This document shows, piece after piece, positions 5,487 to 32,707 of a DNA stretch of 64,000 nucleotides (position 1 is the stretch's first letter; every line of letters begins with the position of its first letter). This DNA is from Candidatus Freyarchaeum deiterrae (lineage in GTDB: Archaea > Asgardarchaeota > Jordiarchaeia > Jordiarchaeales > Jordiarchaeaceae), in NCBI GenBank assembly GCA_037305845.1, contig CP147778.1:1120001-1184000 (forward strand). Reading direction: 5' to 3'. The position numbers and the translations under genes were made by a program. The notes beneath the pieces are model-generated. The model had not been told where the DNA came from, made no database searches, and saw only the letters and a list, made by a program, of their open reading frames with translations.

Positions 5487-5834
5487 ATGGCTAAACAGGC
5501 AAAAAAGAAAAACAAGGAAGAAACTGTACCAGAAGAGAATATGGTTTTTATTGGAAAAAAACCGACAAAGTAGATTCACGTTAGTGTTCTACGTCGAATG
5601 AGTTACGTTCTGGCTTGCGTTATTCAGTTTAATCAGGGTGCGAAAGAAGTAAGAGTTGTGGCGCGTGGAAGGGCGATTTCCAAGGCTGTTGATGTTGCGG
5701 AGATCGTACGCCAGCGTTTCTTGCCTGAGGGTGTAAAATTGGGTAAGATTACTATGGGCACCGAGATTATGGGAGCTAGTGCTGACGAAAAACGTAATGT
5801 TTCCACTATTGATATTCAACTCCTAAAAGCTTAA
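5487..5834 (+). CDS. albA: DNA/RNA-binding protein Alba, intron-split: join(5487..5568,5599..5834), 105 aa
   Basis: GGAGGT then ATG 5487. Exon 1 ends ...[10 protein letters not shown]; exon 2 gives MSYVLA...[16 protein letters not shown]...NVSTIDI. Splicing restores GKKPTMSYVLA. Confidence 0.92.
5569..5598 (+). other. 30-nt BHB intron in alba
   Basis: CGAC-AA^A-GTAGA...TCTAC-GTCG-AA^T; contains in-frame TAG. Confidence 0.88.
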
Positions 5835-21831: not shown

Positions 21832-22148
21832 TAAATTCCCTCTATAACCCTAAATTTTATTAATTAATCAACGTCATTTACCGATAAATAACTTTCGCTA
21901 ATATTAAAAAGCAGTGCTTCGCAGGAAAAGTAGCCTCACTGAATGAAGCGAAAATGATTAACAAAATATAGAATATGAAAACTTAAAGGAAATATCCCAC
22001 AAAACGCTGTAATATAGAAAGAGTTATGATATTTATTTTTGTAAAAGACAAAATTTTTGATAACTTTTAGAGAATTTAACCCTCTAAGTTGTTATTTTTG
22101 GGTATAATTAGAGATTGGAGGAGCAACCCCTTGCGGGGGTGTCCCCGA

Positions 22149-22173
22149 TGTCTTCCCTTTCGGGTTTCGGACA
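22149..22173 (-). promoter_or_regulatory. Archaeal-type SECIS-like hairpin in vhuU 3' UTR
   Basis: UGUC-CGAAA-CCC-GAAA-GGG-AA-GACA begins 5 nt after the stop: GAA/A internal loop plus three C-G pairs. Confidence 0.65.
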
Positions 22174-22178
22174 GCGGA

Positions 22179-22328
22179 TCAATCAGAGCCTATCACAATC
22201 TCTTTGTTCACGATCTCCTTACCCTCTTCATCGAGGATAATGAGATGGGCGGAACATGAGAGTCAGCAGTCATAGGATCGCATAACCATTTCCAGTAGGT
22301 TAAGGACCTTTGGGTCTATTTCGGGCAT
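22179..22328 (-). CDS. vhuU: Selenocysteine-containing hydrogenase C-terminal peptide VhuU (49 aa; TGA at 22263-22265 = Sec)
   Basis: GGAGGA then MPEIDPKVLNLLEMVMRSYDC-U-LSCSAHLIILDEEGKEIVNKEIVIGSD*. Supplies the Ni-binding motif missing from the upstream large subunit. Confidence 0.88.
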
Positions 22329-22357: not shown

Positions 22358-23671
22358 TTAAGTTTTTATCATGGGTTCGGGTAACTTCAATTTTTCAAGA
22401 ATCTTATCCTCAAATATTTGCTTAGCCGTCACTAGGATTGATTTTTCCACTGTGGCTATGTTATGATTGGTGGCAACAATGAGGTTTGCTTTGGTGCATA
22501 TTCCGTTGTCATCTGACCAGTAGTGATGTATAAGTGTTCCACGAGGAGCTTCTAATATGCCTGCACCATTACCCTGTTTAGGCTCCACATCTGCAAGCTT
22601 AACATCGGTACTGACTATATCGGGGTCTTCAAGTAGAATCTTTGCTTTCTCTACAGCTTCAACCAGTTCAACTATCCTAGCCCAGTTATAAGCTAGGGTA
22701 GCATTGCATGGTCTGCCAACAGTATCCCTATATTCCTTGAATGCCTCCTGAGCCAGAGGAGTCTCCATTTTTTCGACAACATTTAGGCGTGGCAAAGGCC
22801 CTGCACGCCAAATTCCGTCTGGATAACCCGCCGGCTTATAGAATATGTGTGTCGCATAGGAGTAAGGTGCTACGTGTTCAGCTATGTATTCCAAATAATC
22901 TTTCTTCGGGAAATCTGCAACAATTTTACCTTCGGGACTCATAACCCTGACCGTTGCCTTCCCAAAGATGGTGTGCACGCCTTCATTGGCAATACCTACG
23001 TGGTATGAATCAAAAACTCCTAGCTTTGTTATAACATCTAGGTAGTCTGTAACAACCTTCTTAGCAAGGTCTACAGTAAAGTTGGTGAGTTCCAGTGCCT
23101 TGTCAATCCTTTTTAACTGTTCATCGCGTTCCTCCTCTGTCAGAGATTTAGACTGACCTCCAGGAACAGAAGTGACTGGATGTATAGCTCTTCCACCTAT
23201 AAGGAAGCAAAGTTCCTGTCCAATTCTCATCAATTCCAGTGCTTTTTTACCCACATCAGGTAGATTTTTAATTACTGTAATCACGTTACGGTATTTCGGC
23301 TCAGCGAGAGGACCTAACAGAAAGTCTGGCGCAGCTAAGGCATAAAAGTGTAAAGCGTGACTGGAAATATATTTTGCCTGTAAGAGGAGTTCTCTAAGCT
23401 TTAACGCGGGCAGGGGTGGAGTAACATCCCAAGCAGTCTCAACAGCGCTTACCGCTGCTAGGTGGTGAGCCTCGGGGCAGATACCGCAAATCCTTGGCGC
23501 TATTCGAATCACCCGGTCGAGATTACGGCCTTCTAGGAATTTTTCAAAGAAACGTGTGACTACTACACCGAAATGGGCGTCTTCTACTGTGTTATTTTTG
23601 CCTAGCTTTATTACGATTTTTCCGTGTCCCTCAAGTCTGGTTGCTGGTTCAATAACAATTTCTTTACTCAT
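22358..23671 (-). CDS. mvhA: F420-non-reducing [NiFe(Se)] hydrogenase large subunit (group 3c, split form, VhuA/MvhA)
   Basis: TRLEGHG, RICGIC, EAPRGTLIH; lacks the C-terminal DPCxxC. Confidence 0.92.
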   Translation of the reverse strand: MSKEIVIEPATRLEGHGKIVIKLGKNNTVEDAHFGVVVTRFFEKFLEGRNLDRVIRIAPRICGICPEAHHLAAVSAVETAWDVTPPLPALKLRELLLQAKYISSHALHFYALAAPDFLLGPLAEPKYRNVITVIKNLPDVGKKALELMRIGQELCFLIGGRAIHPVTSVPGGQSKSLTEEERDEQLKRIDKALELTNFTVDLAKKVVTDYLDVITKLGVFDSYHVGIANEGVHTIFGKATVRVMSPEGKIVADFPKKDYLEYIAEHVAPYSYATHIFYKPAGYPDGIWRAGPLPRLNVVEKMETPLAQEAFKEYRDTVGRPCNATLAYNWARIVELVEAVEKAKILLEDPDIVSTDVKLADVEPKQGNGAGILEAPRGTLIHHYWSDDNGICTKANLIVATNHNIATVEKSILVTAKQIFEDKILEKLKLPEPMIKT

Positions 23672-23674
23672 ATT

Positions 23675-24586
23675 TTATTTCGCCTTCCTTACGGTTTTTG
23701 ATACTATGCCCGATGGCAGGAAGTAGGTATAAAAGGTTCCGGCAACATCACCGACTCTTTTTACAAGTTCCTCTGGGCTTATTGCCTCATAATCTACTAT
23801 GGAGCCCAGTGCGCTAATCATCTTGGCTCCTTGGTCTATTACATTCGGTCCTGGACCGTAGCATCCCGTACAGGGCGATCCCGCCCTTGTACACAAGGCA
23901 CCGCAGCCTTCACGTGTCGCGGGCCCCATGCAAACGTATCCCTGTTCCAATAAGCACTTCTTTGGATCCGGTATCCCTTCATAGTCTCTCTTTAACTGTT
24001 TAATAGTTATTACTTGGGATTTTTCTCTTGGACACTCGTCACATAGAGTACGAGTTGGTGGTGGCGGTAGCTCGCCTTTCAACAGACCCACTAATGCGTC
24101 TGCAATGTTCTGTGAAGTTACCGGACAACCGGGTAGGAAAACTTCAAAATTCACTATTTTTTTGTTAGGCACAATAAAGTCTAACATCTTTGGAATATCT
24201 TCATCAGGAATAGAAGGTTCTTCAAGACTTTCTGCTTCCATAAATTTACGTTTGAAAGCTTCATCCATAGTAGAAAGATTAAGCAATCCGTAGATTCCAC
24301 CATAGGTGGAACAGCTGCCCAATGAAATCAGAGTTTTAACCTTCGCCCTCAAAGTCTTTAAGATGTGTACATCTTCCTCTGTCCTGCAGACACCTTCAAC
24401 AATTCCGACATCGATTGAGCCGTCCTTGTAACTCTCTAAATCCTTGTACTTGAAGTCGGTCACTACATGCCAGAAGACAATGTCCAACTCCGGCAGAATG
24501 GGTAGCAGGCCTTCGTAATTATCTAAAAACGATTGGTAACAACCCCAACAACTGGCCAACGAAACCATAGCTACTTTAACAGGCAT
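23675..24586 (-). CDS. mvhG: Hydrogenase small subunit MvhG
   Basis: SCWGC, GSCSTYGG, PGCP, CLLEQG..CMGP, CTGCYGP. Confidence 0.92.
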   Translation of the reverse strand: MPVKVAMVSLASCWGCYQSFLDNYEGLLPILPELDIVFWHVVTDFKYKDLESYKDGSIDVGIVEGVCRTEEDVHILKTLRAKVKTLISLGSCSTYGGIYGLLNLSTMDEAFKRKFMEAESLEEPSIPDEDIPKMLDFIVPNKKIVNFEVFLPGCPVTSQNIADALVGLLKGELPPPPTRTLCDECPREKSQVITIKQLKRDYEGIPDPKKCLLEQGYVCMGPATREGCGALCTRAGSPCTGCYGPGPNVIDQGAKMISALGSIVDYEAISPEELVKRVGDVAGTFYTYFLPSGIVSKTVRKAK

Positions 24587-24605: not shown

Positions 24606-25065
24606 TTACTCCTTATCTTTTCTGAGCGGACTAGGTCCCAACTCCTTCAGTTTTTTCACAAAATCGTTCATAACTTCAACTAAAACATTACCTTCACTGG
24701 CTGAAATCCACTCCAACCTTAATCTCTCGGGTTCAATACCGAGCTGTTCAATTAACTTTTCGAGAAGTCTAATTCTCTCCTCAGCCCTGTAGTTTCCAGT
24801 AACATAGTGACAGTCACCGTGATGACACCCCGCTATAAGCACACCATCAGCACCCAATTCAAAAGCTTTCAAAACAAACTGAGGATCGACACGACTACTA
24901 CACATAACCCGAATAAACCTAGCATTTGAGGGATACTGCATCCTACTAGTACCCGCCATATCAGCGCCGGCATATGAACACCAATTCTGCGCCATGTAGA
25001 CAAATCTACGAAGCTTTGCAGAAGATGCCGACAATTCTTGGTTTAAATTCTCCGTCATTACCCAT
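24606..25065 (-). CDS. mvhD: MvhD [2Fe-2S] subunit, intron-split: join(complement 25016..25065, 24606..24984), 142 aa
   Basis: AGGTGA then ATG 25065: [16 protein letters not shown]|[12 protein letters not shown]...RVMCSSR...GCHHGDCHY. Intron removal restores the CNWC motif. Confidence 0.92.
24985..25015 (-). other. 31-nt BHB intron in mvhD
   Basis: CTGC-AA^A-GCT..GTAGA-TTTG-TCTAC..GGC-GCAG-AA^T; shifts frame and contains in-frame TAG. Confidence 0.9.
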
Positions 25066-25155
25066 TGCCTTTCACCTTACTTTAGTAATGTTTTTTTGAA
25101 GTTGTAGCAGATATTTTGTTGTGTTCACATTTTTTATTATCATTAGGGGGGAAGG

Positions 25156-25225
25156 TTTCCCCACGCGTGTTTTTAATAGGGTTTTTTTCGTGGTTAACAG
25201 TTATTTTTGATATTTAATGCTTTCG
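25156..25225 (-). promoter_or_regulatory. Promoter/leader of mvhD operon, duplicated upstream of hdrA
   Basis: 34-nt identity (25186-25219 = 28892-28925); BRE/TATA-like CGAAA..ATTAAATA on the minus strand. Confidence 0.7.
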
Positions 25226-25695: not shown

Positions 25696-26724
25696 GTGAC
25701 AACTTTGAAAGTGCTGTTTAAAACTGTACAGGGGCTTGAAGAACCCACTTCGCAGGAGATTCTTGAGAAACTGAGCGCTATTAATTTGATCTTCTCCCCC
25801 TATGGCCCACAAGGATGGATTAAGTGTGAAATAGAGGATCGCATATTTAGGGATGTAGGAAGACTAAGGTCAATTATTGAGGCTTATGTGATTTTACGGG
25901 AGGAAGATTACGACGAGGGGTTCTCAATTGATAATTTTGCGGATGCGGTGGTAACTGAGATTCCTGTTTATGCTCCTAACGCCCGAAAAATTTCAGTTTC
26001 AGCCTACTCAAGTCACAGAAAACCAAGCCAAAAGGAGATACAAGGAACTTTTGCGAGGAGAATCGCCAAGGAACTTAACGCTGAATGCAATCTTAGGAAT
26101 TATGATACCGCTTTAAGAATAACCTTACTCAGGAGAATAGCGCTTGCAACCATAAACCTGGAAATACAGCCAGGAAACATGCCAAAGAAACTTGAAACCC
26201 ACCCAACACCAGTACTTCCCCCCATAGCGTATTGTATGGTCAGGTTAGCGTCCCCACAGAAGGGTGAACACTTGCTCGACCCGATGTGTGGTTGTGGAAC
26301 AATACCATGCATGGCGGCATTAGAGTGGGAAAACCTTAGAGTTACAGGGTCGGACATTTCCAGTGAATATATATCCTGCGCCAAGAGAAACGCTGAAACC
26401 TTAGGGGTAGCGGATAGAGTAAAATTTATGGTTAGTGACGTAGCAGAACTCGCAGAAAAAGGAGTTGAAGCGGATATAATCTCAGTTAACCCACCGTATG
26501 GAATAGCCATACCAACACAAAACGAGACGGAAAAACTGTACGACTCGATATTCAACACAGCTGATAAAATTCTACCAAAACAGGGTAGAATCATCATAAT
26601 AACACCCTACCCTCAACAAGTAGGAGAAGCGGCAAACAAAAAGAAGTTCCAGAGTATCAACACCTACAAAATCCACGAAGGAGAATTACCCAGAACAATC
26701 CAAATCATGAAAAAGTTACAATAA
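25696..26724 (+). CDS. THUMP-like SAM-dependent RNA methyltransferase (Trm14/UPF0020 family)
   Basis: LDPMCGCGTI, GSDIS, NPPYG. Confidence 0.85.
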   Translation: MTTLKVLFKTVQGLEEPTSQEILEKLSAINLIFSPYGPQGWIKCEIEDRIFRDVGRLRSIIEAYVILREEDYDEGFSIDNFADAVVTEIPVYAPNARKISVSAYSSHRKPSQKEIQGTFARRIAKELNAECNLRNYDTALRITLLRRIALATINLEIQPGNMPKKLETHPTPVLPPIAYCMVRLASPQKGEHLLDPMCGCGTIPCMAALEWENLRVTGSDISSEYISCAKRNAETLGVADRVKFMVSDVAELAEKGVEADIISVNPPYGIAIPTQNETEKLYDSIFNTADKILPKQGRIIIITPYPQQVGEAANKKKFQSINTYKIHEGELPRTIQIMKKLQ

Positions 26725-28863: not shown

Positions 28864-28931
28864 TTTCCCACGCGTATTTTTAGGAGGGTTGTTTCGTGGT
28901 TAACAGTTATTTTTGATATTTAATGTTTTCG
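28864..28931 (-). promoter_or_regulatory. Promoter/leader of hdrA, copy of the mvhD upstream element
   Basis: Near-identical to 25156-25225. Confidence 0.7.
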
Positions 28932-29082: not shown

Positions 29083-29694
29083 ATGGCGACTCTAAGGATA
29101 ATCTGCGATAACTGCGGGGCCAAGTTGCAATATTCCGAAGGTGAAACAGTTGTAACCTGCCCTTATTGTAATTGTGCCGTGGCACTAATAAAACCAGAAG
29201 ACGCCGAAGAACACTTCAAACGGGGGAACGACCATTATGAAAAGGGATTGCTTGGTAAGGCGATACGGGAATACAGAGAGGCGCTAAGAATAAACCCAGA
29301 CCATGCCAAAGCCCACAACAACCTGGGGACCGCTCTTGATGATAAGGGATTGGTTGATGAGGCGGTACGGGAATATGGAGAGGCGCTAAGAATAAACCCA
29401 GAATATGCCATAGCCCACTATAACTTGGGAAACGCCCTTTATGATAAGGGGTTGCTTGACGAGGCGATCCGAGAATATAGAGAAGCAATAAGAATAAAAC
29501 CGGACATCGTCTATGCACATAACAACTTGGGAAATGCTCTTGATGATAAGGGATTAGTTGATGAGGCGATACAAGAATATAGAGAAGCAATAAGAATAAA
29601 ACCGGACTTCACCGAAGCTCAACTCAACCTGAGTACGACCCTTAAAGCTAAGGGGCGGCCTGAGAGGCGATCAAAAAGTACAAAGAGGCGTTAA
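29083..29694 (+). CDS. Zn-ribbon plus TPR-repeat protein (last repeat frameshifted)
   Basis: CDNCG/CPYC; 34-aa repeats AHNNLG.AL.DKG..DEAI.EY.EA.RI.P. Confidence 0.85.
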   Translation: MATLRIICDNCGAKLQYSEGETVVTCPYCNCAVALIKPEDAEEHFKRGNDHYEKGLLGKAIREYREALRINPDHAKAHNNLGTALDDKGLVDEAVREYGEALRINPEYAIAHYNLGNALYDKGLLDEAIREYREAIRIKPDIVYAHNNLGNALDDKGLVDEAIQEYREAIRIKPDFTEAQLNLSTTLKAKGRPERRSKSTKRR

Positions 29695-29843: not shown

Positions 29844-30692
29844 ATGGCGACTCTAAGGATAACCTGCGACAACTGCGGAGCCCCACTGCAATACTCCAAA
29901 GGAGAAACAGTCCAAACCTGCCCTTATTGTAAGTGCACAGTAACACTAATAATAAAAACAGCAGCAGCAGCAGAAGAAGAGGAAGAAGCCGAAGAAATAT
30001 CAGAAGAGGAAATGGAAGAAGCCGAAGACCATTACAAACAGGGGGTTGCCCTTTATTACAAAAGGTTGAATGATGAAGCGATTGAAGAATTCGAAGAAGC
30101 GCTAAAAATAAAACCAAACTACGCCGAAGCCCACAACGACCTAGGAGTTGCCCTCTTAGATAAGGGGCTGATTGGTGAAGCAATCAAGAAGTACAGAAAG
30201 GCGCTAAAAATAAAACCAAACCTCGCCACAGCCCACTATAATTTGGGGAATGCCCTTAGAGATAAGGGATTGCTGGATGAAGCGATCCAGGAATACAGAG
30301 AAGCAATAAGAATAAAACCAGACGACACCGACACCCACCATAATTTGGGGAATGTCCTTAAAGCAAAGAGATTATTTGATGAGGCGATACGAGAATACAG
30401 AAAAGCAATAAGAATAAAACCAGACGACCCCGACACCCACAACAACATGGGGAACGCCCTCTACGATAAAGGGCTGCTTGACGAAGCAATCAAGGAATAC
30501 AGAAAAGCGCTAAAAATAAAACCGAGCTACGTTGAAGCCCATTATAACCTGGGGAACGCCTACTATGATAAGGGGCTGCTTGACGAATCGACACGAGAAT
30601 ACAGAAAAGCGCTAAAAATAAACCCAGACCTTATTGAAGGCATTCCTAAGGATCGCCGTAAGAAGATCCTTAAGGGTAAATGGTCATTTTAG
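29844..30692 (+). CDS. Zn-ribbon plus TPR-repeat protein (tandem paralog)
   Basis: Same N-terminus MATLRI.CDNCGA; acidic linker; six TPRs. Confidence 0.88.
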   Translation: MATLRITCDNCGAPLQYSKGETVQTCPYCKCTVTLIIKTAAAAEEEEEAEEISEEEMEEAEDHYKQGVALYYKRLNDEAIEEFEEALKIKPNYAEAHNDLGVALLDKGLIGEAIKKYRKALKIKPNLATAHYNLGNALRDKGLLDEAIQEYREAIRIKPDDTDTHHNLGNVLKAKRLFDEAIREYRKAIRIKPDDPDTHNNMGNALYDKGLLDEAIKEYRKALKIKPSYVEAHYNLGNAYYDKGLLDESTREYRKALKINPDLIEGIPKDRRKKILKGKWSF

Positions 30693-32074: not shown

Positions 32075-32707
32075 ATGGTCGAAGAACAAAAAATAGTAAG
32101 AAAAACAGACCCAAAATTCATAGAAGAAATAATCGAATACGGATCAAAATACTTCACAAAAGAAGAAATGGAAAGACTAAGAGCATGTATCCAGTGCGGC
32201 ACATGCGTTTCCGGTTGCCCTTCAGGCCGTAGAACTGCTTGGCGTATTAAGAAAATCTTTAGACGGGCTCAGCTGGGGTTGAAGGAAGATGCTCTGAAAG
32301 ACGAAGGGCTCTGGGACTGTACCACGTGTTTCACGTGCCAAGAAATCAGAGCTTAGGTTTATTATTACTTACTCTGACTTGAAAGATGTCCCAGAAAGGT
32401 GCCTACTACTGATGTTGTTCGTGTGATTCGTAATATTGCTTTTAGGAATGGTATTGCTAATCCGAAGCATTTGGCTACTTGTGGTTATCTTTTCAGGTTT
32501 GGTCATGGTGTTCCGATTAATGATGATACTAAGGCGGTTAGGAAGAAGATTGGTTTGGATGAACTTCCTGCTACGGTTCATAAGTATCCTGAGGGTTTGA
32601 AAGAGGTTAATACGATAGTTGAGGAAACTGGGTTTAAGAAAGTGGTTGACGACGCTCAGAAAGAGGCTCAACAGAAGGAGGCTCAGAAGAAAGATGAAAA
32701 GAAGTAG
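32075..32707 (+). CDS. hdrC: Heterodisulfide reductase subunit C, intron-split: join(32075..32344,32384..32707), 197 aa
   Basis: CIQCGTCVSGCP, then WDCTTCFTCQE|RCPRKVPTTD after intron removal; GHGVP; followed by hdrB. Confidence 0.93.
32345..32383 (+). other. 39-nt BHB intron in hdrC
   Basis: CAAG-AA^A-TCAGAG...CTCTGA-CTTG-AA^A; contains in-frame TAG and TGA. Confidence 0.9.

Follow-up and report, generated by a model that had tools for sequence, protein, structure and literature searches.

Is the mvhD gene of the Asgard archaeon Candidatus Freyarchaeum deiterrae as intact as it appears, or does its open reading frame conceal an intron? The gene (also vhuD; PF02662) lies on the minus strand of the 64,000-nucleotide stretch of DNA analysed here (the window), which spans positions 1,120,001–1,184,000 of one 3,576,204-bp contig, a complete Freyarchaeia chromosome, and it is the first gene of a vhuD-G-A-U operon with hdrA nearby. 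An ORF track presents it as an uninterrupted 150 amino acid protein (MTENLNQ...AQNWC) running from an ATG at 25058 (24606..25058, minus strand), and the NCBI annotation gives a 129 amino acid form from an ATG at 24995. An earlier reading made from the DNA letters alone (the sequence-only reading) had singled out the AQNWCSY of the longer product, which we confirm, and had proposed that the true start lies upstream in another frame, with a bulge–helix–bulge (BHB) intron splitting the CNWC motif in between.

Translation from the ATG at 25065 stops after 18 codons at a TAG (25008..25006, minus strand) located inside a 31-nt insert (24985..25015, minus strand). Deletion of 25015..24985 produces a 142 amino acid frame containing IVGIFCNWCSY, with three equivalent registers only (shifts -2..0), and the proposed boundaries CTGC AA^A ... 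GCAG AA^T were reproduced exactly. Exon 1 (25016..25065, minus strand; 50 nt) comprises codons 1–16 and two nucleotides of Asn17 and encodes strand beta1 and the invariant Cys16; joined to exon 2 (24606..24984, minus strand), it yields the MvhD/FlpD [2Fe-2S] subunit with cysteines at positions 16, 19, 45, 70 and 75. A Shine–Dalgarno-like sequence serves this start: AAGGTGA (25072..25078, minus strand), complementary to the 16S 3' end of the same genome (GGATCACCTCCT), lies 6 nt ahead of the ATG and is kept in all seven alleles considered below. The extent of exon 1 is fixed exactly by orthologues without the intron. Because 31 is not a multiple of three, stop-codon readthrough is ruled out, as had been argued, and so is readthrough by selenocysteine.

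That the gene passes for whole is readily accounted for by its false N-terminus. Against the FlpD profile (PF02662) the joined protein scores 191.5 bits over positions 1–123, with the CxxC, MCS and GCHxGDC cysteines all present, and it matches PDB entry 5ODC_D with an E value of 2e-54; the false form still reaches 180.7 bits. AlphaFold2 places FVYMAQ of the false form in the beta1 slot where IVGIFC belongs and returns a mean pLDDT of 87.8, compared with 88.6 for the joined form, and thus fails to separate the true from the false N-terminus. With both Pfam and AlphaFold2 accepting the false protein, checks of intactness of this sort miss such introns. What does distinguish the forms is their cysteines, five in the joined protein and four in the false forms, from which the invariant Cys16 is missing. 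By elimination, and from the 5ODC structure, we take Cys16 of exon 1 to be a probable ligand of the [2Fe-2S] cluster. For Methanothermobacter MvhD, the second cysteine of CNWC has been described as a further conserved residue, located between FAD and the cluster (PMC13580544). The 150 amino acid ORF is an annotation artefact, and at least nine public MvhD records from this clade carry a wrong N-terminus.

Around the insert, the RNA is predicted to fold much as a splicing substrate should, although not in canonical form. A central 4-bp helix is formed by CTGC in exon 1 (25018..25021, minus strand) and GCAG in the intron (24987..24990, minus strand), with pair probabilities of 0.98–1.0. The 5' strand is followed by a 3-nt bulge, AA^A (25017..25015), closed by an intron stem of ten positions (25014..24991), and the 3' strand by AA^T (24986..24984), which lies in a 2x4 internal loop closed in turn by a 6-bp exon helix (GGCATC, 25024..25029, pairing with GGTGTT, 24982..24977, all minus strand). 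The outer helix is invariant in the seven alleles, as are the central helix and the cut sites, the 5' bulge being AAA or AAU. The claim of a BHB intron therefore stands as regards the central helix, the 5' bulge and cuts that restore the frame, but not as regards the canonical shape: the second 3-nt bulge of the strict hBHBh' form is absent and the 3' cut site in the internal loop makes this a relaxed (HBh', or bulge–helix–loop) motif. The insert region is more stable than shuffled sequences (z -2.33). The predicted minimum-energy fold pairs UU with the 3' AA, burying it, and the cleavable conformer lies some 2.6–2.8 kcal/mol higher. Within the intron stem, 94% of cells are paired across the seven alleles, with no compensatory double changes and two pairs showing one-sided changes, and covariation is no greater than in shuffles; the alleles are closely related. 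Rfam returned no match at the insert, which at only 31 nt holds no self-splicing group I or II ribozyme core. An origin as a mobile element (MITE) was rejected, the mvhD insert being single-copy in the genome even when up to nine mismatches are allowed.

Could the insert simply be an error? A frameshifting insert in a metagenome-derived genome invites that suspicion, but the region recurs with 100% identity in contigs of two other runs, and JGI, ENA and Logan assemblies supply six more alleles (78–90% DNA identity) with a 31-nt insert at the same site, all seven sharing the TAG in the exon-1 frame. Since independent Logan contigs agree exactly, the insert is not an assembly error, and we treat the probability of a sequencing or assembly fault in this genome as negligible. 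The insert-bearing alleles group together in a single clade with 96/96 support, next to congeners and a sister family that lack the intron, a pattern for which a single gain is the simplest reading. Nine related genomes carry intron-less orthologues, reading MGGNGEFEPRIVGILCNWC in four congeners (MGGNGEFEP(R/K)IVGILCNWC) and KILGIFCNWC in five genomes of the sister family.

Alignment of both N-termini against homologues, one of the checks that had been suggested, gives a clear answer: the true N-terminus matches the intron-less orthologues and the false one is confined to the intron-bearing cluster. Where the motif could be scored in the closest database proteins, its first position is Cys in 117 and Gln in nine, all nine of the latter belonging to the intron-bearing mvhD cluster, and Cys16 is invariant in a 63-row alignment. 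The sequence-only reading had looked to homologues sharing the false N-terminus as evidence against an intron. Databases do contain proteins with MTENLSQ...AQNWC or MLRRFVYTAQNWC, P0131 and P0127 among them, but every one for which DNA was retrieved is a mis-called intron-bearing allele; such sharers do not refute the intron, and that test was badly chosen.

Selection acts on the joined frame. Pooled over allele pairs, which are not independent of one another, dN/dS is 0.026 for the joined coding sequence; taken separately, exon 2 gives 0.018, exon 1 in its true frame 0.15 and the false N-terminal frame 0.66. Five of the seven alleles have lost the ATG of the false start, and two of the seven have stops in the false N-terminal frame. 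The value for exon 2, at 22–56% synonymous divergence, together with the absence of further lesions and an intact operon, speaks against the idea that the insert inactivated mvhD and that paralogues (HdrA–MvhD fusions, Sec-type copies) took over its role, an idea encouraged by six other FlpD-domain matches in the genome but one that we find exceedingly improbable. The intron itself diverges less than synonymous sites do (0.03–0.23 compared with 0.22–0.56). A run of seven degenerate codons is frozen at the junction, and nowhere else in the gene is there a run as long (P ~0.001 given the rates elsewhere); intron-less relatives vary freely at the same codons; that they are frozen only where the intron is present points to RNA structure on the exon side.

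Joined mvhD is seen in an assembled contig of a relative with ~82% DNA identity to this genome. Logan contig L118 (SRR28530379) is identical to contig L119 (SRR28530383) at all 6,774 positions bar the 31 intron nucleotides, and it encodes P0134, a full-length member of the mvhD protein cluster. An independent test is provided by alba, which contains a 30-nt BHB-type intron with an in-frame TAG (5569..5598, plus strand). Only two joined Alba proteins were found, from SRR28530378 and SRR28530379, and these represent two distinct alleles. The joined form is present on contigs L237, L239 and L240 (SRR28530378/9) and an unspliced form on L238; SRR28530379 contains both joined sequence and an unspliced copy of one of the two alleles. 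The remaining listed members of the alba clusters, among them all the named NCBI and JGI proteins, are either split or read through the intron. The alba joint has BHB geometry (AA^T/AT^T). An exact search for the mvhD junction in JGI metagenome contigs gave no match, and a scan of related loci returned distant homologues only. As a separate point, gene callers take the TAG of the alba intron as Gln, giving read-through records of 117–118 amino acids (P0187, P0197, P0198 and P0206; compare L238:347-703) that could be mistaken for an alternative genetic code.

The contigs from SRR28530378/9 cross intergenic DNA and cover both strands, so that they cannot be pure mRNA, and this leaves room for a reading at the DNA level, in which the intron-less contig represents a genomic allele, either ancestral or produced by precise loss. 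Intron-bearing cells would then do without splicing and start a shortened MvhD at an internal ATG: 24995, 25058 or, in relatives, the AATG of the 5' bulge. In its favour, the false frame is open through the intron itself in all seven alleles, with a product that scores ~181 bits against FlpD and folds in AlphaFold2. The same reading, however, demands that the insert be lost exactly from two unlinked genes, and from two distinct alleles in the case of alba, with the DNA otherwise unchanged, in a class in which no reverse transcriptase (RVT_1) was found in 11 genomes. It must also contend with purifying selection on exon 1 and its ribosome-binding site in the intron-bearing alleles, with alternative starts that are not conserved and have no well-placed Shine–Dalgarno sequence, and with a product that lacks the invariant Cys16. 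We consider it very unlikely. Given the exact loss at two genes, the mixed forms and the lack of RVT_1, SRR28530378 and SRR28530379 are best read, on what their contigs contain, as RNA libraries with DNA carry-over, and the joined mvhD contig as probably deriving from RNA; none of the papers searched lists these runs.

Joined contigs might also arise as reverse-transcription slips, with the mRNA itself remaining uncut and the ribosome hopping 31 nt over a hairpin between matched codons. Programmed bypassing of this kind is known from T4 gene 60 and from the byps of yeast mitochondria. In six of the seven mvhD alleles a stable hairpin is indeed flanked by matching codons (AAT...AAT) at a spacing of 31 nt, and a stop follows soon after. 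In the present genome, however, the codons are AAA and AAT and so unmatched, the stop lies two codons past the take-off site, conservation is centred on the 4-bp helix and the staggered bulges, and alba shows BHB geometry at its own joint; a slip artefact, moreover, would have a flanking repeat of just 3 nt to work with and would need to win assembly. Bypass is in our judgement highly improbable.

With the insert, the restored frame, the conservation, the selection on the joined frame, the exactly joined sequence in a close relative and the genes for the enzymes all established, we put at about 0.9 the probability that the mvhD insert is an mRNA intron spliced by the tRNA-splicing endonuclease EndA and the ligase RtcB. 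The genome encodes RtcB and two EndA subunits, as expected for a broad-specificity (alpha-beta)2 endonuclease. The catalytic EndA subunit has the Tyr/His/Lys residues and a Crenarchaea-type specificity loop (GQPLGIRKPKSPQF), and its best match is 3P1Z (E 7e-43), the loop aligning with that of 3P1Z/3AJV; the second subunit lacks the catalytic His. We take 3P1Z and 3AJV to be Aeropyrum EndA. Introns of cbf5 typically have relaxed motifs, which only a heterotetrameric endonuclease can process (PMC2738675). In this genome and its two companions 92–95% of tRNA genes contain introns, many at non-canonical sites (Valentin-Alvarado et al. 2024, PMC11291895). EndA and RtcB would be expected to act on the mvhD pre-mRNA.

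In the mechanism that we propose, exon 1, the 31-nt intron and exon 2 would fold into the relaxed BHB around the 4-bp CUGC/GCAG helix. On the 5' side the intron stem would close a 3-nt bulge, and the 3' site would sit in an internal loop that the 6-bp GGCAUC/GGUGUU exon helix closes. In each bulge the two-subunit endonuclease would cut between the second and third bases; RtcB would join the exons, restoring the frame and Cys16, to give a 142 amino acid [2Fe-2S] adaptor between the Vhu/Mvh hydrogenase and heterodisulfide reductase. Unspliced RNA, translated from its strong start, would be expected to terminate after 18 codons. One clade of the genus would have acquired the intron, in a single event, and retained it.

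The mvhD insert does not appear to be alone. A tight scan of the genome found 53 frame-joining candidates compared with 29 in a reversed-genome control, with the excess at 27–35 nt (18 compared with 5); a loose intrinsic scan was indistinct from its decoys (233 matches, 212 decoys, before strict filtering). There may be roughly a dozen similar frame-breaking inserts genome-wide, a figure that is rough because looser scans do no better than decoys. A motif-free comparison with 1.57 Mb of a congener (G003) yielded no more than two clear introns and did not pick up the one in mvhD, since short exons and shared introns escape the method. Convincing further cases include alba, hdrC, ahcY, gatE, nadE and pcm. 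The hdrC gene, encoding a partner subunit of the same complex, has a 39-nt BHB intron (32345..32383, plus strand) inside its second Fe-S motif (CTTCFTCQE|RCP); the joined product of 198 amino acids matches the intron-less P0145 and P0147, showing that presence of the intron varies within the clade. In ahcY, at least two BHB inserts of 29 and 56 nt flank a short exon (L227:1100-1128 and 1212-1267, equivalent to G000:C1:1876927-1876899 and 1877066-1877011 of this genome, minus strand). BHB-type frame-breaking inserts of 30–33 nt are seen in gatE, nadE, pcm and other conserved genes, at G000:C1 positions 1472189-1472160 (-), 1619887-1619919 (+), 2244134-2244165 (+), 2285374-2285405 (+), 1863944-1863974 (+), 2636190-2636158 (-), 987065-987095 (+) and 2434719-2434689 (-). 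A common origin of the mvhD and alba introns through a GTAGA/TCTAC stem finds no support beyond chance, the stem occurring 59 times where 51 are expected.

The prediction that introns of this sort can hide in apparently whole genes is borne out a second time by a porA-like gene. This gene contains a 28-nt BHB insert (L226:1555-1582; G000:C1:1589381-1589354, minus strand), and its relatives are stored as 392 amino acid proteins with a nonsense N-terminus (MLRLRRRLWL...), one record even carrying an enzyme name.

How does mvhD compare with splicing systems already described? In a literature search that covered few subscription papers, splicing within archaeal coding sequence was found for cbf5 only, in addition to a 5' UTR intron in Haloferax. 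The cbf5 pre-mRNA intron of the Crenarchaeota (Desulfurococcales, Sulfolobales) is 16–44 nt in length (Watanabe 2002; Yoshinari 2006; Yokobori 2009, PMC2738675). The mvhD intron resembles it in being short, ORF-less, located within coding sequence at a functionally critical codon and patchily distributed across lineages; it has a relaxed BHB, as do most cbf5 introns, with the predicted cuts between the second and third bulge bases and a tie to heterotetrameric EndA. The mvhD intron has the central helix, the frame-restoring cut sites and the host enzymes expected of the cbf5-type class in relaxed form, and would work in the same way. It differs in being found in the Asgard phylum, in an unrelated energy-metabolism gene, and in having arisen inside a single genus, whereas the cbf5 intron dates from the base of two orders. 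It also belongs to a set of about a dozen inserts in its genome, and an open frame that overlaps it, acceptable to both Pfam and AlphaFold2, conceals it. They differ also in the nature of the evidence: cbf5 splicing has been shown by cDNA and in vitro, whereas that of mvhD rests on comparative data and an assembled contig.

The BHB intron of HVO_1309 in Haloferax volcanii is another case of the tRNA splicing endonuclease acting on an mRNA (Schwarz et al. 2020, PMC7714728). It lies in the 5' UTR, whereas the mvhD intron breaks the reading frame, so that splicing is needed for a complete protein. Closer at hand, the non-canonical tRNA introns of Freyarchaeia and Atabeyarchaeia (PMC11291895; bioRxiv 10.64898/2026.10.13.758758) share with it the same organism, short BHB-bounded inserts, repeated recent gains and a two-subunit EndA; those two papers deal with tRNA genes only, however, and the preprint makes no mention of mRNA or cbf5. 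Outside the archaea there is a looser parallel in XBP1/HAC1 mRNA, which shares with mvhD a short frame-shifting intron and the use of a protein nuclease and a tRNA ligase. In eukaryotes, this IRE1/RtcB splicing is stress-regulated. The XBP1/HAC1 system (named in PMC13149111) employs a different nuclease and recognition motif, and no homology with mvhD is claimed.

If spliced as proposed, mvhD would extend coding-sequence splicing from cbf5 to a core energy-metabolism gene in Asgard archaea and, as one of about a dozen such inserts, would make mRNA splicing by protein enzymes look routine in a lineage close to eukaryotes. Since congeners exist both with and without the intron, and the substrate is short and defined, intron gain and EndA specificity can both be tested directly. 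A broader picture, which is tentative and on balance doubtful, is that Freyarchaeia/Jordarchaeia routinely splice many mRNAs by endonuclease and ligase, with gains ongoing and some introns invisible in ORFs that pass family and structure checks, so that the catalogue is undercounted. In this clade, two subunits of the electron-bifurcating Hdr–Vhu complex, mvhD and hdrC, would each need splicing at an Fe-S cysteine motif, and vhuU would need selenocysteine recoding. If splicing is partial, as the presence of spliced and unspliced alba in sister runs would suggest, tRNA-splicing capacity could exert genuine control over the energy metabolism of a lineage closely related to eukaryotes.

The remainder of the operon and its surroundings offer several observations in their own right. 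Downstream of mvhD lie mvhG/vhuG, encoding the hydrogenase small subunit (23675..24586, minus strand), mvhA/vhuA, encoding a large subunit that lacks the C-terminal Ni motif (22358..23671, minus strand), and an uncalled vhuU-like peptide of 49 codons (22179..22328, minus strand) with an in-frame TGA (YDC-U-LSCSAH) predicted to specify selenocysteine. G+C-rich hairpins follow the vhuU-like peptide at ~22110-22175 and may hold a SECIS element. Two MvhD paralogues with an in-frame TGA at CWK-U-GYGAAD (G000:C1:6036-6404, minus strand, and 1249558-1249926, plus strand; loci L003 and L004) are probable selenoproteins. A sigma-70 promoter scan gave nothing relevant. A 55-nt direct repeat (87% identity) is found upstream of mvhD (25171-25225) and of hdrA (28877-28931), and the mvhD promoter may be a copy of that of hdrA. 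In the intron-bearing clade a methyltransferase gene (25696-26724, plus strand) separates hdrA from mvhD, whereas hdrA abuts mvhD in intron-less congeners. Further along the plus strand, at 29083-29694 and 29844-30692, is a tandem pair of paralogous genes whose products have a zinc-ribbon-like N-terminus and TPR-like repeats.
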